Origin: Nereida sp.
Lineage (GTDB): Bacteria > Pseudomonadota > Alphaproteobacteria > Rhodobacterales > Rhodobacteraceae
Reading direction: 5' to 3'
DNA length: 64,000 nt
NCBI RefSeq assembly: GCF_965655635.1
Contig: NZ_CBFHHE010000004.1
Span: 30,158 to 94,157 of the forward strand
The notes below the pieces were generated by a model that searched no databases, was not told the origin of the DNA, and was given only the letters and a program-made list of their open reading frames with translations. A program made the translations under genes and the position numbers. Below are positions 16,247 to 37,926 of this stretch, in pieces. Positions within the stretch are counted from its first letter, which is position 1. Every line of letters begins with the position of its first letter.

Positions 16247-17128
16247 TTAGAGTCCGTTGACGGGGACTTTGAGCATTGGGTTGCCGTCTTTGTCGGTTGG
16301 GACCTCGCCTGCGCGCATGTTTACTTGGAGTGACGGGATGATCAGCTTCGGCATAGCGAGCTGTGCGTCGCGTTCCGTACGGAACTTGATAAAGTCCTCA
16401 CGTGTTTTGTCGCCGCCCACGTGGATGTTGTTGGCCTTCTCATCGGCCACTGTCGTTTCCCACTGAATGTCGCGCCCGTTGGGGCCGTAGTCGTGGCACA
16501 TGAACAAACGCATGTCGTCCGGCAGGGCCAGAACCTTCATGATGCTGTCGTAAAGCTCCTCAGCAGAGCCGCCCGGGAAATCACAGCGCGCTGACCCACC
16601 GTCGGGCATAAACAGGGTGTCGCCCGTAAAGGCCGCGTTGCCCATGACGTGCACCATACAAGCGGGCGTATGGCCGGGCGTATACATGGCAAAGCCCTGC
16701 ATATTGCCGATCATATAGGTGTCGCCGTCCTCAAACAGCGCGTCAAACTGACTGCCGTCCCGTTGGAACTCGGTCCCCTCGTTGAAGACCTTGCCAAACA
16801 CTTCCTGCACAACCGTGATCTTGTGACCAACCCCAATTTTGCCGCCCAGTCTTTGTTGAATATAGGGGGCCGCGCTTAGGTGATCCGCGTGGACATGGGT
16901 CTCGATGATCCATTCCAGCTTCAGCCTGCGCGCCTCAATCTGGCGGATCAGCTCATCGGCGTGATCAAAGGTGATGCGACCGGCTGCGTAGTCGATGTCC
17001 ATAACGCTGTCGATGATCGCGCAGGCATCAGATGTGGGGTCTTTGACGATGTAGCTGATCGTGTTTGTTGCATCATCAAAAAAGGCCTGAACGTCAGGGG
17101 TGATGTCCATGTTTACGGGGTACGTCAT
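16247..17128 (-). CDS. Persulfide (sulfur) dioxygenase, MBL fold (ETHE1/Sdo/Blh-like)
   Basis: ETHVHADH, TPGHT, GDTLFMPDGGSARCDFPGG, MCHDY and PSLQVN motifs; SD AGGAG before MTYPVN. Confidence 0.88.
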   Translation of the reverse strand: MTYPVNMDITPDVQAFFDDATNTISYIVKDPTSDACAIIDSVMDIDYAAGRITFDHADELIRQIEARRLKLEWIIETHVHADHLSAAPYIQQRLGGKIGVGHKITVVQEVFGKVFNEGTEFQRDGSQFDALFEDGDTYMIGNMQGFAMYTPGHTPACMVHVMGNAAFTGDTLFMPDGGSARCDFPGGSAEELYDSIMKVLALPDDMRLFMCHDYGPNGRDIQWETTVADEKANNIHVGGDKTREDFIKFRTERDAQLAMPKLIIPSLQVNMRAGEVPTDKDGNPMLKVPVNGL

Positions 17129-17226
17129 TGTCAATCTCCTTGGTCTCAGGTGCAGGTGGTGGCCGCAGCTTTGCGTCATCCTCAGTGTGTGGGCGGGCAG
17201 TATGCCACCAATGTGAGCGCAGTGTT

Positions 17227-17658
17227 TTATTGAGGCACAGCCGCCGTCGTCATCCGTGTCATCAGGCGTCGCAGGGCAAGTCCAACAACCACCGCAGCTA
17301 TAAACAGAACCACTTCCCAACGCCCCGTTCCAAGGGCGGGAATAGCTGCTCCGGGGCAAAACCCGGCAATGCCCCAGCCGATGCCAAATAACGCAGAGCC
17401 ACCGACAAGGTTGGGATCAATATTGGTTGCGTTTGGTACTTGGAACGTACCGCCAAACAAGGGATGCGCGCGGCGCCACACAGCGCGGTACCCAATCCCT
17501 GTGACAACCAGTGCACCACCCATCACAAAGGCGAGGCTGGGGTCCCATGTGCCTGCAATGTCAAAGAAGTTCAGCACTTTGGCTGGGTTCATCATACCCG
17601 ACAGAGCGATCCCGATACCAAAGACAAGACCTGTGAGGCCAGCAAAAATCAGTTTCAT
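17227..17658 (-). CDS. Half-size YeeE/YedE-family membrane protein
   Basis: GM.NPAKV.NF.D..G.WDPSL.FVM and FGIGWGIAGFCPG motifs. Confidence 0.9.
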   Translation of the reverse strand: MKLIFAGLTGLVFGIGIALSGMMNPAKVLNFFDIAGTWDPSLAFVMGGALVVTGIGYRAVWRRAHPLFGGTFQVPNATNIDPNLVGGSALFGIGWGIAGFCPGAAIPALGTGRWEVVLFIAAVVVGLALRRLMTRMTTAAVPQ

Positions 17659-17661
17659 GGA

Positions 17662-18093
17662 TCAGGCTCCAAATATGTGACGAATGATAAAGACGGTGAT
17701 GCCGGCGGTGGCCATAAAGGTAGGCACTGCAACAAGCGACCGAATGGAAAAGCGCGACAATCCGCAGACCCCGTGACCCGATGTGCACCCAGATCCTAAG
17801 CTTGCGCCAAACCCCACGATGATGCCGCCGATCACAATCATGGTGGGGCTTACTGGCACATCGACAGCGGGCATTGTGCCACTGACCAAAAAGATCACAC
17901 CGGGTGCAGCGATCATGCCAAGGATCATGGCAGCGCGCCACGATGCCTCTGCACGGTTTTGTGCAAAAACCAGACCGGACATGATACCGGTGGCCCCCAG
18001 AATGCGGCCAAGGCCAAGCATCAACATAACGGCGCCAAGACCAATCGCGAGGCCACCGCCAAGGGAGGCAAAAGGAGTGAAAGCTGTTTCCAT
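17662..18093 (-). CDS. Half-size YeeE/YedE-family membrane protein
   Basis: TPF.SLGGG..IG, GRILGATG and GSGCTSGHGVCGLSR.S.RS motifs; alternative start at 18105. Confidence 0.9.
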   Translation of the reverse strand: METAFTPFASLGGGLAIGLGAVMLMLGLGRILGATGIMSGLVFAQNRAEASWRAAMILGMIAAPGVIFLVSGTMPAVDVPVSPTMIVIGGIIVGFGASLGSGCTSGHGVCGLSRFSIRSLVAVPTFMATAGITVFIIRHIFGA

Positions 18094-18095
18094 GA

Positions 18096-18167
18096 TTATG
18101 TCCATCCTGTCTTGATGCCAGCCGCCGTCGTAAAACGTCGCGCCGTGCTGCTTGAATTAATGATCAT
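18096..18167 (-). CDS. Putative 23-aa leader ORF (MIINSSSTARRFTTAAGIKTGWT)
   Basis: Strong SD GAGGAGG 5 nt before the ATG; the stop ends 2 nt before the YeeE ATG. Confidence 0.3.
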   Translation of the reverse strand: MIINSSSTARRFTTAAGIKTGWT

Positions 18168-18584: not shown

Positions 18585-19178
18585 TTAGCCACTTCCAGGG
18601 CGAACCGTCAGACCCAATATGTTCCAGCTTTGCATGCCGCCACGATAGTACCGAATTTTTTCGGCTGGATATCCCGCAGCAATCATACGCCGAGCAGCAG
18701 TGGGTGATTGGCCGCACCACGGACCGTTACAAAATAGAACAACAATCGGAGCCGCATCACTGCAGATCCATCCATCGAAATCAATCTCGCACCCAAGCTC
18801 ATCCAATCTGTCCGCAGCTTGTGTATACGGGATAGAGATTGCGCCCGGTATCGTAGATTTATCGTAGTCAGTGCGTATTCGCCCATCGACCAATACAGCA
18901 TCTTCTCGTTGTAAAAACTCAAGAACTTCCAATTCGCCAACTGGCGCAACACCAGGAGCAGGTATCATTGGTTGGATGCAAAAGTTTGGACATGGCCGTG
19001 ACGTTTGTGTCCAAGGTTCTTGCAACCGTGCATTCGGATCCTGGTTGCGCTTGATATCAACTATGCCATTAGCGGTCTGAACTGTTACGCTCAATAGGTC
19101 TTTGGCAATGCCGACGTCGCCAGCTTGCGCCGAGCCCGCCATCATCACACAACAAACAATTAGTTCTTTTAAACGCAT
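18585..19178 (-). CDS. Exported rhodanese-domain sulfurtransferase at the end of the sox operon
   Basis: Signal peptide (MRLKELIVCCVMMAGSAQA), DGR...Y...TIPGA, active loop FCNGPWCGQS, YRGGMQSW; extra Cys pairs (CPNFC). Confidence 0.85.
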   Translation of the reverse strand: MRLKELIVCCVMMAGSAQAGDVGIAKDLLSVTVQTANGIVDIKRNQDPNARLQEPWTQTSRPCPNFCIQPMIPAPGVAPVGELEVLEFLQREDAVLVDGRIRTDYDKSTIPGAISIPYTQAADRLDELGCEIDFDGWICSDAAPIVVLFCNGPWCGQSPTAARRMIAAGYPAEKIRYYRGGMQSWNILGLTVRPGSG

Positions 19179-19318
19179 GAAGTTAGCCACCTTAACTACT
19201 GGTTTTATAATATAAATCGGAAATAAACTTACGCGAAAGACCGGCACAGCTTGGCTCAACACACGGGCCAGAAAACTCTCGGACGGCAGATTGCGCCCGA
19301 GAGTGTTTTTAAAATCTA

Positions 19319-20584
19319 TTACCCGAACATGTCCGCAGTAATACCAGAGTACCAACCTTCAGATTCGAGGTAGGTTGCCTTACGTACTTCAGAACTCTCA
19401 CCGGTAGATGAGATGAAGCCATCAACTTTGGCGATCTTTTCATCGGTGGCTTCATATGTTGCGCCAACTTTAACACCGTTGTCAGTGTCGATCAGCGACC
19501 AGCATGTGTTAGAGAACTTGGCAGGGAACACACGTGAACCCGTCAGCGCTCCACGAATTGCGTTTGCACATACCTTGGCTTGGCTATTTGCAGAGAACCC
19601 TGACTTTGGCATATCGCCTTGCTGTGAAGCGTCGCCAAGAACATATACGTCTGCATCTGCTTTGCTTGACATGTCAGCAGCATTCACCGGCGCCCAATTG
19701 CCTTGAGTAACGCCTGCAATTTCAGCAATTTTACCGGCCTTCATGGCTGGGATGACGTTGCACACGTCAACATTGACAACCTCTCCATCAATGCTGAGCG
19801 TCATACCATTCGGATCAACTTCGACGTTACCGCCGCCAAATTCTTCACCGACCCAATCGATCATACCGCCATAATTATTTGCCCAACCCTCTTGGAATAG
19901 AGCCATTTTTGAGAATTTCGGCTTAGGGTCTGCAACAATAATTTTTGCAGTTGGGTTATTTGCTTTGAGGTAATGCGCAACCATCGAGACCCGCTCATAT
20001 GGGCCTGGAGGGCAGCGATATGGGTTTGGTGGAGCTACCATCGCGAATACACCACCCTCAGGCATCGCAGCCAACTGAGCTTTCAAAAGCTCGGTTTGAG
20101 AGCCTCCCTTATAAGCATGAGGCATCGCGTTTTGTGCCGTCACATCCCATCCGGCTACTGCGTTATCAACAAAATCGATACCGGGGCTTAACACCAATTT
20201 GTCGTATGTAAGCGTTGCTCCACCGGCCAACGTTACTTGCTTACTATCGCGGTCAACACCAATGGCCCAATCGTGAATAACATTCACGCCAGCGGCAGCC
20301 AAACCACCGTAGCTGTGACCGAGTTCATCCATCTCCTTAAAACCACCGAGGTACAGGTTTGAGAAGAAGCAGGTGTAGTAGGTACGGGTGGGCTCAATGA
20401 GTGTTACATCAATTTCGCCTTTACTATCTTTAGCGATATAACGAGCCGCAGTCGCACCGCCTGCACCACCACCAATTACAACGACGCGCGGCTTGCCGTT
20501 TCCTGCAGCCAACGCCATAGGAGCCGATAAAGCAGCAGACGCCGCCGCTGTGGCACCCAAAAACTTTCTTCTGTTTATAGTCAT
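19319..20584 (-). CDS. soxF: Flavocytochrome c sulfide dehydrogenase flavoprotein
   Basis: TAT RRKFL, VVVIGGGAGG, TCFFSN, PYRCPPGPYER, PKSGFSANSQAK and NTCWS motifs. Confidence 0.94.
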   Translation of the reverse strand: MTINRRKFLGATAAASAALSAPMALAAGNGKPRVVVIGGGAGGATAARYIAKDSKGEIDVTLIEPTRTYYTCFFSNLYLGGFKEMDELGHSYGGLAAAGVNVIHDWAIGVDRDSKQVTLAGGATLTYDKLVLSPGIDFVDNAVAGWDVTAQNAMPHAYKGGSQTELLKAQLAAMPEGGVFAMVAPPNPYRCPPGPYERVSMVAHYLKANNPTAKIIVADPKPKFSKMALFQEGWANNYGGMIDWVGEEFGGGNVEVDPNGMTLSIDGEVVNVDVCNVIPAMKAGKIAEIAGVTQGNWAPVNAADMSSKADADVYVLGDASQQGDMPKSGFSANSQAKVCANAIRGALTGSRVFPAKFSNTCWSLIDTDNGVKVGATYEATDEKIAKVDGFISSTGESSEVRKATYLESEGWYSGITADMFG

Positions 20585-20607: not shown

Positions 20608-21294
20608 TCAGTTTCCGAGGCTTTTGAAATACGCTGCAAGCGCAGCGATCTCATCATTGGCCAAACGACCAGTGACCATTTGCATCACGGAATTATCGCG
20701 ATACTTTTCTTTGTAAGCGTGCATTGCTGTAACGAAATCTGCCTCGTCCCAGCCTGTAATGCCGGGGATGCCATCATTGGCACCACTGGATAAATGACAT
20801 GTGGTACACTCGGACCCGAGGTACTCACCATAAGCGACGTCACCATCCATAGCCAATATTTCTTGTGATACAGAAAAACCGGCTTCGGTAGCGATCGAGC
20901 TATCAGAATATGTTGTGAGGTACGCTATCACATCTGCGCGCTCCTCAGGTTTTGTTAAGCCCCTAAAACTCATCCGTGTTCCTGGCAGGTATTTTTTCGG
21001 AGCCTCTAGGAAAGCATTAAGAGCCGCTTCATCCCAAACCAGACCGTCAGCAGCGGCATTTTTCAAAGCCTTAGAGTATTTCACACCATCAATATTTGCA
21101 GCAGGTGCGCCAATGATATTGTTGAGGTTGGGGCCGACGCGATTACGCGCATCATCACCCACCATGTGGCAGCTGGCGCATTTCCTATAGACTTTTTTGC
21201 CCGCATCAGGGTCCCCTACACTTTCCGCGTGAGCGGAAAATGTAGAGACCGTCAGCCCAACACATAATCCTATTCTAGAAAGATCCAAAAGCAT
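20608..21294 (-). CDS. soxE: Dihaem cytochrome c
   Basis: CASCH and CTTCH haem motifs, c2-like GPNLN and PGTRM; lies between soxD and soxF. Confidence 0.88.
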   Translation of the reverse strand: MLLDLSRIGLCVGLTVSTFSAHAESVGDPDAGKKVYRKCASCHMVGDDARNRVGPNLNNIIGAPAANIDGVKYSKALKNAAADGLVWDEAALNAFLEAPKKYLPGTRMSFRGLTKPEERADVIAYLTTYSDSSIATEAGFSVSQEILAMDGDVAYGEYLGSECTTCHLSSGANDGIPGITGWDEADFVTAMHAYKEKYRDNSVMQMVTGRLANDEIAALAAYFKSLGN

Positions 21295-21296
21295 GA

Positions 21297-22619
21297 TTAT
21301 TCGCCAAATGTTCGCAAGTATTCGATAACTGCCTGCTGGTCAGATGCTTTCTTCAGGCCGGGAAAAGCCATCTTCGTACCCTTCATATACGATTTTGGTT
21401 TTTCCAAAAAACCGGCCAAGGCTTCATCATCCCAAACCAAACCATCCTCAAGCGCTGCTGTAAACACCTTTGAATATTTGAAGCCGTCGACCGACCCCAT
21501 GGTCCGACCAACAATGCCGTTCAAATGCGGGCCAGAACCATTCTTTGCTCCCTCTCCAACCCCATGGCATGCTCGGCATTTCTTAAATACTTTTTTGCCA
21601 TCATCAATCAACTGTGCTTCCTGATCCTCTGCGGACACCTCTTCAACAATCGCCTTTGTGGCGGCAGGTGCTTTTGGCGCAACAGTGGCTGCAGGGATAA
21701 ATGCTGGGCCAGTGGCCGTGAATGACGGCAGACCATCAATCGTGGCATTGTTCATGACCGAATTGGAACCACCTTCTGGCGGTGTCTCAACCAAGAAGAC
21801 AGACCGCATCGTGACTTCGACTTCTTCTTTACAGTTTTTCATGCATGGTTCAGTGCGCCAAGCCGCGTACTCAGTTTCAGCGCGGTCATCCAAAACAAAA
21901 CCGTCTTCGTTGTGCATTTCGAAGTCAGCAAAATTTTCTTGTGATAGCACAAAATCGTCATCAACCATGTCATTGGAATAAAGAATATAAGCAACGATCG
22001 CGTACGTTTCATCCGCAGTCAGAGTCCCTGCTGCACCGAACGGCATTGAGCGATTGATGTAGTCCCACACAGTAGAAAGATGAGGCCAGTAGGAGCCTAC
22101 TGTTTTGATTGGGTCCTCATCTGCCAGCGTGTCAAAACCTCCCGCCAGCACCGGCCAATTGTCAACACCTTCAGCGAAGTCACCGTGACAGGCGGCACAT
22201 TGATCCGCAAAGACCTCTTCACCTGTGAACACATCGCCAGATCCCACGGGTAACCCGCGTCCATCTGGTAGGACATCCACGTCCCATGCTGCGATTTCCT
22301 CGGACAGCGCTAAACGACCAATTTGATATGTGTCGGCTTTGAGCGGTGCAGGCTCTGCAACGGAGCCAACCTGGGAGGCAGCTGCTGCCAGATTAGTTTC
22401 GACAGTTGTCAAACGATCTTGAAGAGCTTGGACAACTTCATTCTGTGCATCGCTTGCATTCTGTGCCGCTGATGTCCGAGCGTTGGCTTGATCAAGCTGA
22501 ATTTCGAGGGACTCGATAGTGCTCTTGTTGTAATCACGCCCCGCTAGTCCAAATGCGAGCCCAAGTGCTAATGCTGTGCCACTGGCTGCCGGCAGGAAGA
22601 TATTAAGAAACTTCGACAT
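21297..22619 (-). CDS. soxD: Sulfur dehydrogenase cytochrome subunit with extended N-terminus
   Basis: EEIAAWDVDV.PDGRGLP.GSG, CAACH, KTVGSYWP and DYINRSMPF motifs; second haem domain CRACH. Confidence 0.94.
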   Translation of the reverse strand: MSKFLNIFLPAASGTALALGLAFGLAGRDYNKSTIESLEIQLDQANARTSAAQNASDAQNEVVQALQDRLTTVETNLAAAASQVGSVAEPAPLKADTYQIGRLALSEEIAAWDVDVLPDGRGLPVGSGDVFTGEEVFADQCAACHGDFAEGVDNWPVLAGGFDTLADEDPIKTVGSYWPHLSTVWDYINRSMPFGAAGTLTADETYAIVAYILYSNDMVDDDFVLSQENFADFEMHNEDGFVLDDRAETEYAAWRTEPCMKNCKEEVEVTMRSVFLVETPPEGGSNSVMNNATIDGLPSFTATGPAFIPAATVAPKAPAATKAIVEEVSAEDQEAQLIDDGKKVFKKCRACHGVGEGAKNGSGPHLNGIVGRTMGSVDGFKYSKVFTAALEDGLVWDDEALAGFLEKPKSYMKGTKMAFPGLKKASDQQAVIEYLRTFGE

Positions 22620-23865
22620 TCTCGGCTTTCCCTTCTACGTCTACGTACCAAGTTTGGATACAGTTGTTGTGATACACAGCGTTCTCGCCACGTTGTTCTC
22701 TCAGTTGTTCTTTAGTTGGTTGAACGTAGCCGGTGTCATCCATAGCTCGTGCTTGCAAAAGCATCGGCGTACCGTCCCACTCTGTATCTAAGTAGAACCG
22801 CGTCAGCGCTTTTGTGTCACCCTGCTTGCCAAGCCGCGCAGTTTCCCAAGTAATACCGCCATCTTTGGACACGTCTACGCGCGTGATCTGACCGTGACCT
22901 GACCAAGCCAGACCGGAAATAACCATCGGCCCTGCACCATGTGTAACGGGCATTTGCGGGCTCGGAGATGTAATGACAGACTTTGCGTCCATGACCCACG
23001 TCCACTTGCGTGCTACGCCATCCTCGTAAACGTCGGTATATTTTGATGTTTCTTCGCGGCTCTCAACTGCGCGATCAGTGATTTCAATACGGCGCAACCA
23101 CTTAACCCAAAGGTTACCCTCCCAACCAGGTACTACCAAACGCACTGGATATCCGTGCTCCATCCGCAAGGCTTCACCGTTTGCTTTGAAAGCTACCAAA
23201 ACGTCATCCAGCGCTTTTTCCATAGGTATGGAGCGTCCGTTCGATGATGCATCGGCGCCTTCAACATAAACCCATTTATCCAAAGAGATGTCAGCTCCCG
23301 CTTCTTTTAGAAGCGTCCGCAAAGGAACACCGGTGTATTCCATGTTGTGGATCATCCCATGTGTAAATTGTACGCCGTTCAGCTGCGCACCGGCCCACTC
23401 CATACCCGTGTTGGCAGCACATTCACAGAAATACACATGGTTTTCGCGTGGCAACCGCTCAAGATCTTCATAGGTAAACACCAAAGGCCGATCCACAAGA
23501 CCATTGATCATCAAGCGGTAGTCATCTTTGTGAAGTTCAATCGCGCCTGAGTGATGGCGTTCAAACGCACACCCTTGGGGTGTGATTGTGCCTTCAAGCG
23601 CATGAATTGGGGTGAAATTGATAGACGAAATAGGTGAGGCTGTCAGCCATTCAACATTGCGACGAATAACGTCGGACTCGAAGCTAATCGGAAGGCCGTA
23701 AGGTGTCTCATCTACCCCCGCGCCCAGATATGAGGCCCAGTCCTGCAGCTCGGTAATGGCTGGATCAGGTGTTTGGGCACTAACAGTACCAGCAGCTGTG
23801 CCTGCTGCTACTGCAGCACTTCCTCGCAAGAAGGCGCGACGGGAGGTTTTAGACATCTCATCCAT
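22603..23865 (-). CDS. soxC: Sulfur dehydrogenase molybdoprotein subunit
   Basis: TAT SRRAFL, FERHHSG, Moco Cys FCECAAN, GYPVRLVVPGWEGN and SGLAWSG motifs. Confidence 0.96.
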   Translation of the reverse strand: MDEMSKTSRRAFLRGSAAVAAGTAAGTVSAQTPDPAITELQDWASYLGAGVDETPYGLPISFESDVIRRNVEWLTASPISSINFTPIHALEGTITPQGCAFERHHSGAIELHKDDYRLMINGLVDRPLVFTYEDLERLPRENHVYFCECAANTGMEWAGAQLNGVQFTHGMIHNMEYTGVPLRTLLKEAGADISLDKWVYVEGADASSNGRSIPMEKALDDVLVAFKANGEALRMEHGYPVRLVVPGWEGNLWVKWLRRIEITDRAVESREETSKYTDVYEDGVARKWTWVMDAKSVITSPSPQMPVTHGAGPMVISGLAWSGHGQITRVDVSKDGGITWETARLGKQGDTKALTRFYLDTEWDGTPMLLQARAMDDTGYVQPTKEQLREQRGENAVYHNNCIQTWYVDVEGKAENVEVS

Positions 23866-23889
23866 TTATTGAGTTCTCCAATTTTCTAT

Positions 23890-25587
23890 TCAAAGGCCAA
23901 CGACGTCGACGCTGTTGTTTTCTGACACTGTTACAGTACCGAGCTTGCGGATATGGTTCTCGACCACATCCCAGATTTGGGGTCCTTCGGTTCCCTCGTT
24001 CACGCTAGCCCAACCGGCAACAACGTAAGAATGAGACGGATCAATACGCTCGCCGGTAGCGAGTAATGTCATTTCGGAAATGCGCTCACCCTGGGGCTTG
24101 CTAACGTCAATCCGGTAACCGAGGCCACCGGTACGCACCATATCGCCACCCTGTTGATAATAAGGGTCCGGATTAAAGATGTTGTCGGCGACGTCTTCCA
24201 AAATCACTTTTAGAAATTCACCTGTCATTTCACTACGATACGCCTGACCGTAAGACATCGAAGTGACGCCAAACAAATCTTCGCGCGTGATATCCTGACC
24301 AGGCACAAGCGATGGCCCCCACCGCACGCCCGGACTTAGCGCAATCTGCGCATCACGTTCGCTGAGCAATGCGTCACAAATCAAATCATCCCAAGTTCCA
24401 TTGAAGTTCCCACGACGATACAAAAGGCTATCAGTACGTCCTAAAACTTCAGTCAGCTCAGGCAAATAGGGAGCGCGCTCGGCATCAATGATCGCAGCCA
24501 CTTCAGCATCTGGGGCAATTACATCAGAAAAAATTGGTATCAGTTTGGTGCGGTACCCCATCATCCGGCCATCTCGAATATCAAGATCGACACGGCTCAC
24601 AAACTTACCATTAGAGCCTGATGGCAATACGATCGTACCACCAACGACTACAGGTTCAGGTAGCGCATCATGTGTGTGACCAGATAGAATAACGTCGATG
24701 CCAGGAACTACGCTGGCCATCTTCTTGTCCACATCAAAACCGTTGTGGCTTAGAACAACAACGCATTCCGCACCTTCGGCGCGTACCTTCTCAACCATCT
24801 TCGCCATGTTTTCATCGCGAATACCAAACGAGAACTCTGGGAACATCCAGCCTGGATTGGCAATTGGCATGTATGGGAATGCTTGACCGATTACAGCAAT
24901 CTTCGTTCCACCACGCTCAAAAATTTTATAGGGTGGAAACAGATTAGATGGCTCGTCCCATTCAGAATCAAAGATGTTCTGCCCGAGCGCCGCAAAAGGA
25001 AGACTTTCGACAAGCTCGGTCACGCGCTCAGTGCCCAAAGTAAATTCCCAGTGGAACGTCATCGCGTCAGGCTCTAGCGCGTTCATGACATTCACCATGT
25101 CTTGCGCCTGTGTCATGTGCGTTGTGTAGGAGCCGTGCCAAGTATCGCCACCGTCCAACAAGATAGCATCGGGACGATCAGCACGAATAGCTTTCACAAC
25201 CGTCGCCACACGGTCCAAGCCGCCAACACGTCCGTACCCTTGTGCCAGAGACGAAAAATCGCCTGAACTCAGGGCATAGTGGCTGGGACTGCCGTCCTCG
25301 ATGCCGTACATTCTACGGAAATCAGCACCTGTGACGTGCGGAACCGCACCGGCATTGGCCCCAACCCCGATATTCACCGAAGGCTCGCGAAAATAGATTG
25401 GTTTCAGTTGTCCATGAATATCTGTGATGTGGATGAGTGAAACGTTCCCGTAGGTATCAAACTCGAGTAGCTGATCCTGACTGAGCCGCTGTTGGGCAGC
25501 CAAACGTGCCCAGTTCCCAAAGCCAGAGCCACCAACGATGGCTGAGGCCGCCATACCAACTTGCAAAAAATCTCGACGTGAAATCAT
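23890..25587 (-). CDS. soxB: Thiosulfohydrolase
   Basis: TAT SRRDFL, HITDIHGQL.P.YFREPS, DGGDTW, HWEF, SGHTHD, RRGNF and DPYYQQGGDM motifs. Confidence 0.96.
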   Translation of the reverse strand: MISRRDFLQVGMAASAIVGGSGFGNWARLAAQQRLSQDQLLEFDTYGNVSLIHITDIHGQLKPIYFREPSVNIGVGANAGAVPHVTGADFRRMYGIEDGSPSHYALSSGDFSSLAQGYGRVGGLDRVATVVKAIRADRPDAILLDGGDTWHGSYTTHMTQAQDMVNVMNALEPDAMTFHWEFTLGTERVTELVESLPFAALGQNIFDSEWDEPSNLFPPYKIFERGGTKIAVIGQAFPYMPIANPGWMFPEFSFGIRDENMAKMVEKVRAEGAECVVVLSHNGFDVDKKMASVVPGIDVILSGHTHDALPEPVVVGGTIVLPSGSNGKFVSRVDLDIRDGRMMGYRTKLIPIFSDVIAPDAEVAAIIDAERAPYLPELTEVLGRTDSLLYRRGNFNGTWDDLICDALLSERDAQIALSPGVRWGPSLVPGQDITREDLFGVTSMSYGQAYRSEMTGEFLKVILEDVADNIFNPDPYYQQGGDMVRTGGLGYRIDVSKPQGERISEMTLLATGERIDPSHSYVVAGWASVNEGTEGPQIWDVVENHIRKLGTVTVSENNSVDVVGL

Positions 25588-25818: not shown

Positions 25819-26148
25819 CTAAGAAACGCTGACCTTCTTTTTCGCCTCATAGATATCGCCATCGTCGTCGTACCATTTGAAAGTGAACTCACCACTTTCT
25901 GGGACAATCGCTTCAAACTGAAAATACGGGTTCGTAGAAATGGCCGGCTCAAGTGCGACATCAATCACATTTTCGCCGTTAAATTCGGCCGTAAAGCGGT
26001 TGATAATCGACCTCGGAATAAGGTTACCGTCATCATCCTTACGCTGACCGCTTTCCATTTTGTGGCTGATCAGTGTCTTGATTGTAATTGCCTCACCAGC
26101 TTCAGCTGTTTTGGGTACTTTCACCCGTGGTTTCACACCAGATGCCAT
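25819..26148 (-). CDS. soxZ: Sulfur carrier subunit Z
   Basis: IKTLISHKMESGQRKD, AISTNPYF.F and W.DDDG motifs; SD AGGAGA before MASGVKPRVK (109 aa). Confidence 0.96.
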   Translation of the reverse strand: MASGVKPRVKVPKTAEAGEAITIKTLISHKMESGQRKDDDGNLIPRSIINRFTAEFNGENVIDVALEPAISTNPYFQFEAIVPESGEFTFKWYDDDGDIYEAKKKVSVS

Positions 26149-26210: not shown

Positions 26211-26648
26211 TTAGCCGCCACAACCACCGATGGTCACTTTGACATTTGCCTTAGCCATCTGGAATGAACCGTCTTCCATCTCTGCAACAGCCACGACGTT
26301 CTGCGTTGTGGATAGTCGGATTCGTGTAGACGCTGTGCGCGACGCACTCAGCGCACCAAACTTGAAGGTGGCAACGCTTGGAGTTGGGTTCCCATCAGCG
26401 AACAAAGTGATCGCAACAGCACCCGGAGCATCTATTTCTACGGGAACAGTGTTGCCATTCTCAGCAATTTCAGGGGCCGTTATGGAAATGCCACCTTCGA
26501 CAGCACCTGCGCCGCCTGTAAGAGCTGCAATTGCATCATCTGTCAGGCTTGCAAGGGCCGGCGTACCTACAACAGCGGTCATCGCCAATGCGCAACCACC
26601 CAAAGAAAGGATCGAGCGCCTGTTAAACTGTCTAGTATGGGTAGTCAT
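26211..26648 (-). CDS. soxY: Sulfur carrier subunit Y
   Basis: TAT-like NRRSIL, APEIAENGNTVPV and intact swinging arm VKVTIGGCGG. Confidence 0.96.
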   Translation of the reverse strand: MTTHTRQFNRRSILSLGGCALAMTAVVGTPALASLTDDAIAALTGGAGAVEGGISITAPEIAENGNTVPVEIDAPGAVAITLFADGNPTPSVATFKFGALSASRTASTRIRLSTTQNVVAVAEMEDGSFQMAKANVKVTIGGCGG

Positions 26649-27015
26649 GTCGGTAGGTTTCCCTTCCTGTAGTTAAAAAGTGAGAGACGGTGAATTCGCA
26701 ACAGCGCGCTTGATCAAAGAGGCGTTGGGCGGGTGTTACAACCGGATGCCTTCTATGGCCAGTGGAGATACAAACAGTCGATGACGCATATTGCAGCATT
26801 ATTAGTCGCCCCTCCCAAGCCGATTCAGTTGCCGATTTATGGTATGCTAATGGACACCAACACATTCACGCAACAACAAATTCAATTAAAAGAATTGTTA
26901 TATTTGTTAGCAGGTGCAGAAAAATAAGTAATATTTTGCGCATAATGCCAATCTGGAAAGGCCAAACAGACTACTGGACTATACAACACTTAGCCACAAT
27001 GCCGCAGCGCAGCAG

Positions 27016-27167
27016 TCAGCTGTAAGGATATAAATCGGGTAAAATGAGCTTCAAAAGCCCCAGTCCAAAGTCATTCAGCAATCGCGTAGGTTGGCTTACA
27101 GGGCCGCAAACCATCTTACATGTAATAAGCCAGGCAGCCAAAACTCCGACGTTTTTGTTACACGCAT
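27016..27167 (-). pseudogene. Possible decayed 5' remnant of soxW
   Basis: An ATG 14 nt after the soxV stop, behind AGGGTGA. With +1 in the A5 run it reads MRVTKNVGVLAAWLIT...LNDFGL, signal-peptide-like and vaguely like the SoxW LGDDGL. No CxxC is left. Confidence 0.2.
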
Positions 27168-27181
27168 TCACCCTACGCTCA

Positions 27182-27922
27182 CTAGCCGAGCGTGCTAAAC
27201 CAGGGCACATAATCGAGCATCATTTGCGCAATAGCCCCAATCTGATCGGTCCCCACAAGAATTCCGAATGTAATCAGGCATAAACCAGTGACCTTTTCGA
27301 CTACCCCAAGATATGCCCTAAACCGCAAGATCCATGATGTGAACTGATCCACAAATAGCGATACGAGAACAAATGGCATGGTCATGCCCGCTCCGTAAAC
27401 AAATAATAACCATGCTCCCTCTGCAGCAGTATCTTGCGCGGCAGCCGTAAATAAAATTGCGGCAAGGACTGGCCCCACACATGGGGTCCAACCAAAAGCA
27501 AATGCCAACCCCACAACATAAGCGCCTACAAATCTTGAAGGATCAATCAAACGGGTTTCAATTCTGACCTGGCGGTGGAACGCAGCGATTTGAACGGTAC
27601 CCAAAAAATGCAGACCCATTACAATTAATAGGCACGAAGCCACCAATCGAATTACATCAAACCAATCTTGCACCAGCACACCCAGAGTGCTGGCACTCGC
27701 CCCCAAAGCGACAAATACTGTAATGATACCAAGACCGAAAAAGATAGAAGAAGTTACTGCCCGCGCCCGTCCAGAGATAATCGTGTTCTCGCTGGCTTGA
27801 GCTTCGTTAAGACGTGAGCCGGCAAAATAACTCACATAAAATGGCACTATCGGCAAAACGCAGGGGGACAAAAAAGACAAAAGGCCCGCTGTAAGGGCGC
27901 CAACTGTAGTCACCTCGAACAT
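27182..27922 (-). CDS. soxV: CcdA/DsbD-like membrane thiol-disulfide transporter
   Basis: SFLSPCVLP and FGWTPCVGPVL (both catalytic Cys); position divergent from soxS; SD GGAG before MFEV. Confidence 0.88.
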   Translation of the reverse strand: MFEVTTVGALTAGLLSFLSPCVLPIVPFYVSYFAGSRLNEAQASENTIISGRARAVTSSIFFGLGIITVFVALGASASTLGVLVQDWFDVIRLVASCLLIVMGLHFLGTVQIAAFHRQVRIETRLIDPSRFVGAYVVGLAFAFGWTPCVGPVLAAILFTAAAQDTAAEGAWLLFVYGAGMTMPFVLVSLFVDQFTSWILRFRAYLGVVEKVTGLCLITFGILVGTDQIGAIAQMMLDYVPWFSTLG

Positions 27923-28005
27923 TTTAACTCCGTCACTCACTTGAGCAATTTGCATAAAGGCATATATTGGAGGCATGAGAGACGTCAACGAAAGGGCGCT
28001 CCAGC

Positions 28006-28368
28006 ATGTTCAGAGCGATTTTTACAGCGACGTTACTTTGTATTCCCTGCACCGCATTTGCAGAGACATTGTTACTTATGGCTGAGAGGGACGGATGTTA
28101 TTGGTGTGATCGATGGGATGCTGAGATAGCAGAAATTTATCCAAAAACTTCTGAAGGAAAAACTGCTCGCCTTGAACGCTTTGATATCAAAACGGGAGCG
28201 CGAGACGTAGAACTTGAGAAGTCTGTCCGTTTTACACCCACTTTTATTCTTGTTAATGACGGTAAGGAAGTTGGCCGTATCGAAGGCTATCCCGGTGAAG
28301 ACTTCTTTTGGGCAATGCTTTCGATGATGCTCAAAGATGCTGATATACCTTTTGAACAAGCGAGTTGA
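28006..28368 (+). CDS. soxS: Periplasmic thioredoxin-like protein
   Basis: Signal peptide, GCYWC, FTPTF and RIEGYPGEDFFW motifs. Confidence 0.88.
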   Translation: MFRAIFTATLLCIPCTAFAETLLLMAERDGCYWCDRWDAEIAEIYPKTSEGKTARLERFDIKTGARDVELEKSVRFTPTFILVNDGKEVGRIEGYPGEDFFWAMLSMMLKDADIPFEQAS

Positions 28369-35696: not shown

Positions 35697-36620
35697 ATGA
35701 GACTTATTCTTACCACACTCGTCGCAATCGTTGGCATTGCTACAGCGCCGCTCGCGGCAACATTTGGACCGCTTGTCGAAGCTAATGATCTTGCCAACGC
35801 TCTAGATGCGAAACAACCTGTTCTTCTTGATATCCGCAACGACGGCTATGCGGACTCCCACGTGGACGGCGCACTTTGGGCACCGTACAAATTGTTCCGT
35901 GGCACCAAAGACAATCCCGGTGGCCTTATGGATTTGGCGGTTTTGGAAGAGCACCTTGAGAAGCTAGGCCTCGAACAAGATGAACCAATTGTCATTATTT
36001 CAGAAGGTAACACTGATACAGATTTTGGTGCAGCAGCGCGTGTCTATTGGACACTTAAATCAACAGGCTTCACTGACCTGAGCATCCTGAACGGTGGTCG
36101 GATTGCATGGAGAAATGCAAACCTGCCCCTAAACAACACGCTTGAAACCGCAGTACCAAGCCAGCTGAACCTTGAGTTTGATACCACTTGGTTGGCGGAT
36201 ACTCAGCACGTGTCTTCGGTGGTGAAAGGTGAGAATTCAGGGCTGTTGGTTGATGCACGGCTGCCCGAGTTCTTTGCCGGCGACAAAGCACACGGTGCTG
36301 CGAAGCGTCCAGGAACGTTGCCCGGTGCTATTAATCAGTCCTACACAACATTTTTCGAAAATGGTGCCGCAGCCATCTCAACCCCGACAGATATCTCCGC
36401 TTTGAAAGCATCACTCGGCATTAAGGGTGACGAAGAGGTAATCTCGTTTTGCAACACTGGGCACTGGGCCGCGACACATTGGTTCGCTCTGTCCGAGCTT
36501 GCGGATGTTGAAAACGCAAAGCTCTACGCTGGATCGATGGTTGAGTATTCCAACGCGGACTTGCCGATGGAAAACACACCAGGCGTCTTTAAGAACCTGC
36601 TTCGTCAAATTGGGTTCTAG
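35697..36620 (+). CDS. Exported tandem-domain rhodanese/sulfurtransferase
   Basis: Signal peptide, LLDIR, AARVYWTL, ILNGG..AW, DAR...F.G, GTLPGA, active loop FCNTGHWA and LYAGSM.EY motifs. Confidence 0.9.
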   Translation: MRLILTTLVAIVGIATAPLAATFGPLVEANDLANALDAKQPVLLDIRNDGYADSHVDGALWAPYKLFRGTKDNPGGLMDLAVLEEHLEKLGLEQDEPIVIISEGNTDTDFGAAARVYWTLKSTGFTDLSILNGGRIAWRNANLPLNNTLETAVPSQLNLEFDTTWLADTQHVSSVVKGENSGLLVDARLPEFFAGDKAHGAAKRPGTLPGAINQSYTTFFENGAAAISTPTDISALKASLGIKGDEEVISFCNTGHWAATHWFALSELADVENAKLYAGSMVEYSNADLPMENTPGVFKNLLRQIGF

Positions 36621-36622
36621 CT

Positions 36623-37747
36623 TTGTCTGATCTTGCGCAACCAATTGCGGGGGGCAACCCCCGCAAATTTTTCACGTCTGCGGCAATGTTATTCTTTGCT
36701 GTATTCATATGCTTGTCTGTGTCTGCAATTGCCGGTCTTCGATATGGTTTAATGATTGCGATCGGCCTTGGATTTGGAGCCACTTTAGAAGGACTGCGCT
36801 TTGGCTTTGCAGGGCCATGGCGGGCGATGATTTTACGACGTGACCCTTCGGGTATCTGGGCTCAGCTCCTTGCAATCGGAATTGTAGCGTTATTTGCGAT
36901 ACCACTCATCAATAGTAACTCTGGTGAAGTTAACGCCGCAGCCGCACCCATTGGATACGCTATGGTTTTGGGCGCCTTTGTTTTTGGTGTCGCAATGCAA
37001 ATTGTGTTGGGATGTGGGTCTGGCACTTTGGTAAACGCTGGATCAGGCAATCTTGTTTCTCTGATAGCCTTGCCCTTCTTTGCCGTTGGCAGTTTTGCAG
37101 GGGCATTTCACCTATCTTGGTGGACGGGTCTTGGCGCGCTTCCAGCACAAAATCTAACTGGTTGGGAAGGTACCTTCACGACTTTGCTCGTTTTGTCATG
37201 CGTTGCTGCGTTTTTGTGGTGGAAGGCAGAGCCACAGCTACGCCGACTTCCCAAGAGATTGATACTAGCAGCAGTGCTAGTTGCTGTATTAGCGCTTCTT
37301 AACTTGGTCGTATCGGGACAACCGTGGGGCGTAGTTTATGGTCTGGGGCTTTGGGTCGCTAAGGGTGCATATTTTTCTGGTGTGGACCTATCCGGATCAG
37401 TTTTTTGGACCGCAGCAGGATCGCTAGAACGCATCCAGGCGAGCGTACTGACAGATTATACGTCACTCACAAATATCGGTTTGATCGCAGGCGCGTTCTT
37501 GGTGGCTTTTTGGCGAAAGGGCTTGTCACAACCACTCCCAAAGGTGCCAATGTCAGCGTGGGTCTACGCAGCAGTCGCAGGGTTTCTAATGGGGTACGCT
37601 GCTAGATTGGCATTTGGGTGTAACGTTGGGGCGTTCTTTTCTGGCATATCCACGGGCAGCCTTCACGGGTGGGTCTGGTTTGCTTTTGCCTTTATGGGAT
37701 CATACTTAGGAATTTATTTGCGCCCACGATTAGGGCTAGAGGTATGA
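36623..37747 (+). CDS. Full-length YeeE/YedE transporter
   Basis: FGFAGPWR, GCGSG.L and FGCNVGAFFSG motifs; starts 2 nt after the rhodanese stop. Confidence 0.9.
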   Translation: MSDLAQPIAGGNPRKFFTSAAMLFFAVFICLSVSAIAGLRYGLMIAIGLGFGATLEGLRFGFAGPWRAMILRRDPSGIWAQLLAIGIVALFAIPLINSNSGEVNAAAAPIGYAMVLGAFVFGVAMQIVLGCGSGTLVNAGSGNLVSLIALPFFAVGSFAGAFHLSWWTGLGALPAQNLTGWEGTFTTLLVLSCVAAFLWWKAEPQLRRLPKRLILAAVLVAVLALLNLVVSGQPWGVVYGLGLWVAKGAYFSGVDLSGSVFWTAAGSLERIQASVLTDYTSLTNIGLIAGAFLVAFWRKGLSQPLPKVPMSAWVYAAVAGFLMGYAARLAFGCNVGAFFSGISTGSLHGWVWFAFAFMGSYLGIYLRPRLGLEV

Positions 37748-37926
37748 CTTTGACAAGATATCTCACTGCGTCACTCGCGATAACACTTGTCGCCAGCTTT
37801 CTGGTCTTTGACCTAATCATGATACCGCCGAACCCATACGTTGCGCCGAGTGCCATAAGCCTTGGATCAGGTGAGGTAGCAGTAGGCGGGTTTTGCGGAG
37901 ATTTACCAGTTACGACGAACAAATGA
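37744..37926 (+). CDS. About 60-aa single-TM microprotein with GGFCG motif
   Basis: ATGA overlap with the YeeE stop (or TTG 37750 with SD GAGGT). One hydrophobic helix, a Pro-rich linker and a lone Cys in GGFCG. Confidence 0.6.
   Translation: MTLTRYLTASLAITLVASFLVFDLIMIPPNPYVAPSAISLGSGEVAVGGFCGDLPVTTNK

Follow-up and report, generated by a model that had tools for sequence, protein, structure and literature searches.

An exported rhodanese beside soxF in the Nereida lineage: a possible accessory sulfur transferase of the roseobacter Sox pathway

SoxAX, as known from Paracoccus and Rhodovulum, is a haem c enzyme that couples the substrate oxidatively to SoxY, with release of two electrons, and to our knowledge it has been held indispensable for placing any substrate on SoxY. 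Among rhodaneses, the classical TST-type thiosulfate:cyanide sulfurtransferases have a six-residue cationic active-site loop, CRxGx[R/T], whose Arg or Lys binds thiosulfate, and Sud of Wolinella succinogenes is a periplasmic rhodanese with a single Cys that ferries polysulfide sulfur to a respiratory enzyme in polysulfide reduction. The PQQ-associated CXXCW proteins of TIGR03865 are exported, rhodanese-like, carry two nearby Cys and occur with SoxYZ-like carriers. In vitro, the SoxXA of P. pantotrophus is needed for thiosulfate, sulfite, sulfur and H2S alike (PMC5371076). For the periplasmic rhodanese SoxL of Allochromatium vinosum (Alvin_2171; Welte et al. 2009, cited by PMC3368242 and PMC5573963), an action on the sulfane sulfur carried by SoxY has been proposed. 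As far as these accounts of it extend, the soxL gene follows soxXAK in an organism without SoxCD, and the presumed task of the protein is to take sulfur off SoxY for delivery toward sulfur globules.

Here, an exported rhodanese encoded next to soxF is described from a 64,000-nucleotide stretch of a Nereida sp. genome (the window; contig NZ_CBFHHE010000004.1), and its features are collected in Table 1. The protein is tentatively read as a Sox-associated periplasmic sulfane-sulfur transferase that acts on SoxY and is accessory to the roseobacter Sox pathway, with a probability put at roughly 45%. It resembles SoxL in being a periplasmic rhodanese, encoded with sox genes, for which SoxY sulfane is the proposed substrate, the likeness being one of published description. 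The periplasmic location that it would share with SoxL is predicted from its N-terminus, but an adjacent soxXA(K) in a setting without SoxCD was not found: SoxCD is present, SoxXA is missing from the locus, and the protein carries an extra CPPFC extension and a C-x4-C loop.

Table 1. Features of the rhodanese gene and its surroundings, with related sox loci (positions are those of the window unless another genome is named).
Feature	Position	Strand	Remarks
Exported rhodanese CDS	18585..19178	minus	197 aa (P0001), including stop codon
Shine-Dalgarno sequence AAGGTGG	19187..19193	minus	8 nt ahead of the rhodanese ATG (19178)
Sec-type signal peptide (predicted), residues 1-19, MRLKELIVCCVMMAGSAQA	19122..19178	minus	From sequence; low-pLDDT helix at 4-13
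N-terminal extension, residues 20-77	18948..19121	minus	From the model; beta-hairpin (30-44) and long ordered loop
CPNFC motif (C63, C67)	18978..18992	minus	Inside the family-wide TSRxCPPFCIQP block
Single rhodanese domain, residues about 78-190	18609..18947	minus	Pfam; Foldseek and VIA-align
C130 (LGC) to C139 (WIC)	18762..18791	minus	Ends of beta-hairpin 130-133/136-139; alignment and model
Active-site loop C150-N-G-P-W-C155-G	18711..18731	minus	Canonical catalytic Cys; second Cys nearby
Terminator-like hairpin (19275-19304) and U tract	19269..19304	minus	Immediately past the soxF stop
soxF (flavocytochrome c sulfide dehydrogenase flavoprotein)	19319..20584	minus	Neighbour upstream of the rhodanese
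soxE, soxD, soxC, soxB	20608..25587	minus	
soxZ	25819..26148	minus	
soxY	26211..26648	minus	Product ends in GGCGG
Gene-free stretch, 530 bp	26649..27181	minus	Site of soxW and soxX in canonical clusters
YeeE/YedE-like transporter in two pieces (Sulf_transp, DUF6691) and persulfide-dioxygenase-like MBL protein	16247..18105	minus	
Second sox locus of G151	L020 (G151:C7:1-12000) and L007 (G151:C38)		
SoxA-less sox loci of five other genera			L028 (G010), L029 (G020), L030 (G035), L031 (G070), L032 (G012)

The start codon at 19178 is favoured over a TTG at 19355 because most homologs, of which roughly 4,000 were found by homology search, are about 197 residues long. The longer, TTG-initiated frame, which overlaps soxF, was ruled out as the rhodanese gene by this homolog length and by the Shine-Dalgarno sequence ahead of the ATG. 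The N-terminus (MRLKELIVCCVMMAGSAQA, cleaved before a G) combines a charged n-region, a hydrophobic core and an AQA cleavage motif and reads as a Sec signal peptide; each of the 39 family members in the alignment begins with a hydrophobic segment of this kind. C9 and C10 leave with the predicted signal peptide. A lipoprotein reading of LIVC/LIAC near the N-terminus was rejected, as the Cys lies too near the start and is not conserved.

PF00581 (Rhodanese) matches residues 84-186 with an E-value of 7e-12 and 46.1 bits against a cut-off of 22.2, and no other Pfam domain was found in the 197 residues. No curated NCBIfam family was reached; the best, TIGR03865, scored 28.2 bits against a cut-off of 128.05, so the protein is not a member of that family, from which its motif also differs (C-x4-C, with a W before the second Cys). 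The AlphaFold2 model, built from a 39-sequence family alignment (pLDDT 92.3, pTM 0.85), predicts an alpha/beta rhodanese fold in which the catalytic Cys opens the loop after the central strand. Residues ~66-197 superpose on single-domain sulfurtransferases with Z scores up to 14.5 (Foldseek, VIA-align), and C150 is aligned with the catalytic Cys of solved rhodaneses, including 3d1p, while a sequence search of the PDB gave marginal rhodanese hits only. The same fold and catalytic Cys position are shared by Francisella 6mxv (Z 14.5, rmsd 2.5, 123 residues aligned), GlpE (Z 12.2), human TSTD1 (Z 12.0) and E. coli PspE (Z 9.7), the last of which is likewise periplasmic. Identity to these four is 16-27%, and the window rhodanese differs from them by a loop one residue longer with a second Cys and no Arg or Lys, by an unmatched N-terminal extension of ~58 residues and by two probable disulfides. 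Sud (1qxn) matches in fold (Z 9.0, rmsd 3.6, 119 aligned), with no sequence-level relation beyond it. The CNGPWCG loop spans seven residues before the helix, one more than in classical sulfurtransferases, and with neither Arg nor Lys it does not follow the TST-type pattern.

The N-terminal extension has no Pfam match, residues 20-85 searched alone giving none even at an E-value of 10, and residues 20-57 were covered by no match in the structural search. Its TSRxCPPFCIQP block is strongly conserved throughout the 39-sequence alignment, in which C130 and C139 are present in the closest subfamily only, C150 or C155 is replaced in several distant members, and some lack both. Since the CPPFC pair varies independently of the one in the loop and C130/C139 are restricted to one subfamily, C63-C67 and C130-C139 are probably structural disulfides, with C150 and C155 as the likely reactive pair. 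The best explanation of these features is a catalytically competent single-domain rhodanese of an uncurated, undescribed subfamily, recognisable by its N-terminal CPPFC extension and C-x4-C loop. About 377 clusters belong to the exported-rhodanese family at E below 1e-10, and a literature search on the family, on soxF-linked rhodaneses and on SoxXA-less roseobacter clusters found nothing specific. Tandem duplications and fusions to Sel1 repeats or PilJ-type periplasmic sensor domains also occur (P0122, P0147, P0149, P0172, P0182, P0183). An exported rhodanese with a signal peptide had been called at this gene by an earlier, sequence-only reading, and the ORF, the N-terminus and the Pfam match agree with that call; the Cys motifs it listed, CPNFC (C63/C67), LGC (C130), WIC (C139) and FCNGPWC (C150/C155), are all present.

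On the minus strand, the genes run soxV, a 530-bp gap, soxYZ, a 230-bp gap, soxBCDEF, the rhodanese, a 480-bp gap, the transporter and the dioxygenase-like gene, with soxS, soxR and a YeeE/SoxT gene divergent from them. The soxZ-soxB interval of 230 bp holds no soxA, and the window locus has no room for soxA, soxX or soxW. The rhodanese is physically tied to this sox cluster, in which profile searches and tblastn found none of these three genes. The window soxV and soxS (27182-28368) have omega values of about 0.26-0.34 between this genome and its N. ignava-like relative, against 0.02-0.05 for soxB, soxC, soxD, soxF, soxY and soxZ, and the SoxV shares no more than 47% identity with the canonical protein of a congener. 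The window also encodes another exported rhodanese, P0271 (35697-36620), with two domains and a FCNTGHWA loop, which adjoins a YeeE gene; it is a candidate for another periplasmic sulfur-handler in the same genome.

The rhodanese had also been presented as the last gene in the direction of the sox transcript. It does lie on the same strand, 140 bp downstream of soxF, but its place in that transcript is doubtful on account of the hairpin after soxF. The 30-nt hairpin folds at -24.9 kcal/mol, against -14.7 +/- 2.6 for shuffled sequences (z -3.9), and is followed by UUUUCU, an AT-rich stretch and then the ribosome-binding site, an arrangement conserved in N. ignava. A promoter and terminator consensus scan of the minus strand between soxF and the rhodanese returned nothing; the hairpin loop exceeds what that scan allows. 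The rhodanese is probably transcribed separately, or by attenuated read-through, and is not simply the last cistron of a sox operon. A 9-mer (ATAAATCGG) found upstream of both soxY and the rhodanese was discarded as a shared operator, as it is not conserved in N. ignava and is absent at all other loci.

A survey of 150 Rhodobacteraceae genera, each represented by one genome, found orthologs, defined by an identity of 52% or more along almost the whole protein, in 28. SoxA and SoxB were both present in 27 of these, the exception being a 63%-complete genome, and SoxA was present in 59 of the 122 genera without an ortholog, related genomes not being independent samples. The rhodanese is enriched in Sox-positive genomes, which have SoxAX, although the co-occurrence could in part reflect shared ancestry or ecology. 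In all but a few genomes the ortholog is found on another contig or tens of kilobases from sox. Yoonia algicola alone has it as close as 3 kb to a complete sox cluster, and it follows soxF only in the Nereida lineage. The earlier reading had stated that similar rhodaneses accompany complete sox clusters too, and both the SoxA counts and the Yoonia locus agree. In the neighbourhoods inspected from Phaeobacter, Roseibacterium, Roseibium and metagenome contigs, the gene stands alone among unrelated neighbours and has a sigma-70-like promoter. At five such loci (L003, L021, L023, L024, L025) the promoter-like element reads TCGACT - 17 nt - ATATAC/GATACG, ~35 nt before the ribosome-binding site. 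The neighbourhoods of three distant family members had no recurring partner and were of non-sulfur character.

The genome analysed comprises 2.22 Mb in 68 contigs and is 94.9% complete. HMM and tblastn searches of all of it found no SoxA, SoxW or SoxX over cut-off and no SoxA/TsdA-type domain or cytochrome, and a tblastn search for relics of soxW, soxX and soxA, in which a congener's canonical proteins were run against the whole genome, returned only noise and the expected weak soxE hit. The comparison within the genus covered four genomes. In G112 the soxVWXYZABCDEF cluster is canonical and the rhodanese has a 39% paralog but no ortholog, and G152 has neither sox genes nor an ortholog; within the genus, the ortholog is found only in the two genomes with a soxWXA-less locus, that is, this one and the Nereida ignava-like G151, in which the same soxV-YZ-BCDEF-rhodanese locus is present. 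A distant paralog (about 37-45%) in G152 is in two pieces in different frames and is possibly a pseudogene (G152:C5:85703-86180). G151 also has a second locus, soxV2-W-X-Y2-Z2-A, which is split over two contigs, lies beside a tRNA-Arg, ends at a DDE transposase and is island-like. This locus accounts for the complete sox set listed in the N. ignava genome paper (PMC4770636). Its soxYZ DNA is 97% identical to that of the window and only 93% to the locus-1 copy in G151, a pattern suggestive of gene conversion, or of transfer from one Nereida lineage to another. In the genome analysed here, the contig syntenic with the flank of the second locus holds an unrelated 784-codon gene instead. This, together with the genome-wide negative searches, makes a real loss of SoxAX likely, though it is unproven as the assembly is incomplete. 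The genome also has a second molybdopterin domain of the sulfite-oxidase family (G000:C55:2-418), truncated where its contig stops; it could be of the MsrP or SorA type and bears on the fate of free sulfite.

Codons 44-197 of the rhodanese are under strong purifying selection between this genome and its N. ignava-like relative (omega 0.076), comparable with soxB, soxC, soxD, soxF, soxY and soxZ in the same pair (omega 0.02-0.05). Codons 1-43 (19050-19178), which cover the signal peptide and the first beta-hairpin, show 15.5 nonsynonymous against 2.5 synonymous changes (omega about 2). Docking of the mature rhodanese to mature SoxY and SoxZ scored 0.44, the best of three controls scoring 0.13; this places it in the class of weak support, in which, according to the docking tool, most passes are wrong unless the prior is strong. 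Among solved complexes 58 of 80 came up to the mark, as did two of 110 mismatches, but a score of at most 0.60 with the mark reached was seen for only seven of the 80 complexes and yet for both of the passing mismatches. Contact agreement between runs was at least 72%, and partner pLDDT at least 91.

In the proposed role as a Sox accessory, Cys150 would pick up sulfane sulfur as a persulfide, from polysulfide or persulfide that is produced by SoxEF or abiotically, or possibly from thiosulfate. It might then exchange this sulfur with the Cys on the GGCGG arm of SoxY, the presumed partner, either loading or unloading the carrier, and a resolving or protecting role may fall to Cys155. The stand-alone gene of most roseobacters would supply an enzyme that works alongside SoxAX; in the Nereida lineage it would have moved beside soxF, in a cluster from which soxW, soxX and soxA were lost. 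Co-occurrence with Sox, the pattern within the genus, selection, proximity to sox in Yoonia and Nereida, docking and the precedent of SoxL speak for such a helper, while monocistronic unlinked orthologs, non-sulfur contexts, relatives without the loop Cys, the hairpin, a loop without Arg or Lys and the weak docking class speak against it.

A serious rival, although an unlikely one, is a housekeeping periplasmic rhodanese, active in cyanide or sulfane detoxification or in PspE-like thiol-redox upkeep, whose adjacency to soxF is an accident of rearrangement. The solitary genes in Phaeobacter, Roseibacterium, Roseibium and metagenome contigs, and likewise in distant relatives, are in keeping with such a role, as are the promoter-like elements of the gene itself and the terminator ahead of it; the region downstream of soxF moreover varies between genera, and some family members lack the catalytic Cys or are fused to Sel1 or PilJ domains. 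Against it stand the strong co-occurrence with Sox (27 of 28 genera with an ortholog, compared with 59 of the 122 others), the restriction of the ortholog within the genus to genomes with a soxWXA-less locus, and the proximity to sox in both Yoonia and Nereida, which are separate lineages. The role of Sox accessory is preferred.

The earlier reading had put the rhodanese forward as a candidate substitute for SoxAX. In such a substitution, sulfane from thiosulfate cleavage or from the SoxF product would be placed on the SoxY Cys as a persulfide without electron release, and SoxCD and SoxB would finish the oxidation. The finishing step fits the accepted Sox cycle, with which the chemistry as a whole is compatible, but the loading step, where thiosulfate is the donor, meets a loop that lacks the cationic residue for binding it, and a further sink would be required for the free sulfite that thiosulfate cleavage releases. 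SoxAX and the rhodanese would share only the proposed outcome, sulfur on the SoxY Cys, for the rhodanese could transfer sulfane only, without electron release, and its 197 residues hold no CxxCH haem motif or SoxA-TsdA domain. In favour of a substitute are the failure to find SoxA, SoxX, SoxW or a TsdA-type cytochrome in this genome, the other gene that occupies the site of the sister species' soxVWXYZA, the intactness of all remaining sox genes under strongly purifying selection, the confinement of the ortholog within the genus to soxWXA-less loci, and the docking to SoxYZ (weak class).

The comparative data turn against the substitution. Not only is SoxA present in 27 of the 28 ortholog-bearing genera, but sox clusters without SoxA were found in five other genera (genomes 97-99% complete), where soxYZ is directly followed by soxB, with soxCDEF in three of the five; none of these genomes has a SoxA/TsdA-type cytochrome anywhere or an ortholog of the rhodanese, and none has a rhodanese domain on the sox contig. 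Across genomes, then, presence of the rhodanese does not correlate with absence of SoxAX, and SoxAX-less systems do not need this rhodanese, as these five genera have neither an ortholog nor a linked rhodanese. Their SoxB proteins are 65-73% identical to that of the window, against 81% for a canonical congener, and from these sequence comparisons SoxAX-less clusters seem recurrent and independently derived. Furthermore, G151 keeps soxVWXYZA together with the same soxF-rhodanese locus, so the linkage did not arise as compensation. With the hairpin between soxF and the rhodanese, and with the loss itself unproven in a 94.9%-complete, 68-contig genome, the substitution for SoxAX is judged decidedly improbable.

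There is, similarly, only a small chance that in this genome, and perhaps for the locus-1 SoxYZ of N. ignava, the rhodanese loads SoxY non-oxidatively, so that sulfane from SoxEF polysulfide or from thiosulfate would enter a SoxAX-independent Sox cycle run by SoxCD and SoxB. Very improbable, too, is service to the downstream genes, with periplasmic sulfur passed through the two-piece YeeE/YedE-like channel to the persulfide-dioxygenase-like enzyme as might be done by the rhodanese and YeeE module at 35697-37926: Sulf_transp, DUF6691 and the MBL/Blh-like gene come next on the same strand in both Nereida genomes and the Yoonia ortholog is near soxT/YeeE, but a 480-bp gap precedes the transporter and orthologs elsewhere have no such neighbours.

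The rhodanese family is widespread, uncurated and never characterised, and it tracks Sox-positive marine roseobacters. If SoxAX is truly missing here, the rhodanese, tentatively an accessory of the Sox pathway, would be the most obvious remaining loader of SoxY, which would be a possible consequence and not the conserved role of the family. Six Rhodobacteraceae genera, including this one, combine intact soxYZB(-CDEF) clusters with a genome in which no SoxA was found, and SoxY must therefore be loaded by other means in them. For that function the rhodanese offers a testable candidate in a single lineage; the comparison across genomes shows that it cannot be the general answer. As Nereida ignava is cultured, the question is open to a genetic test.
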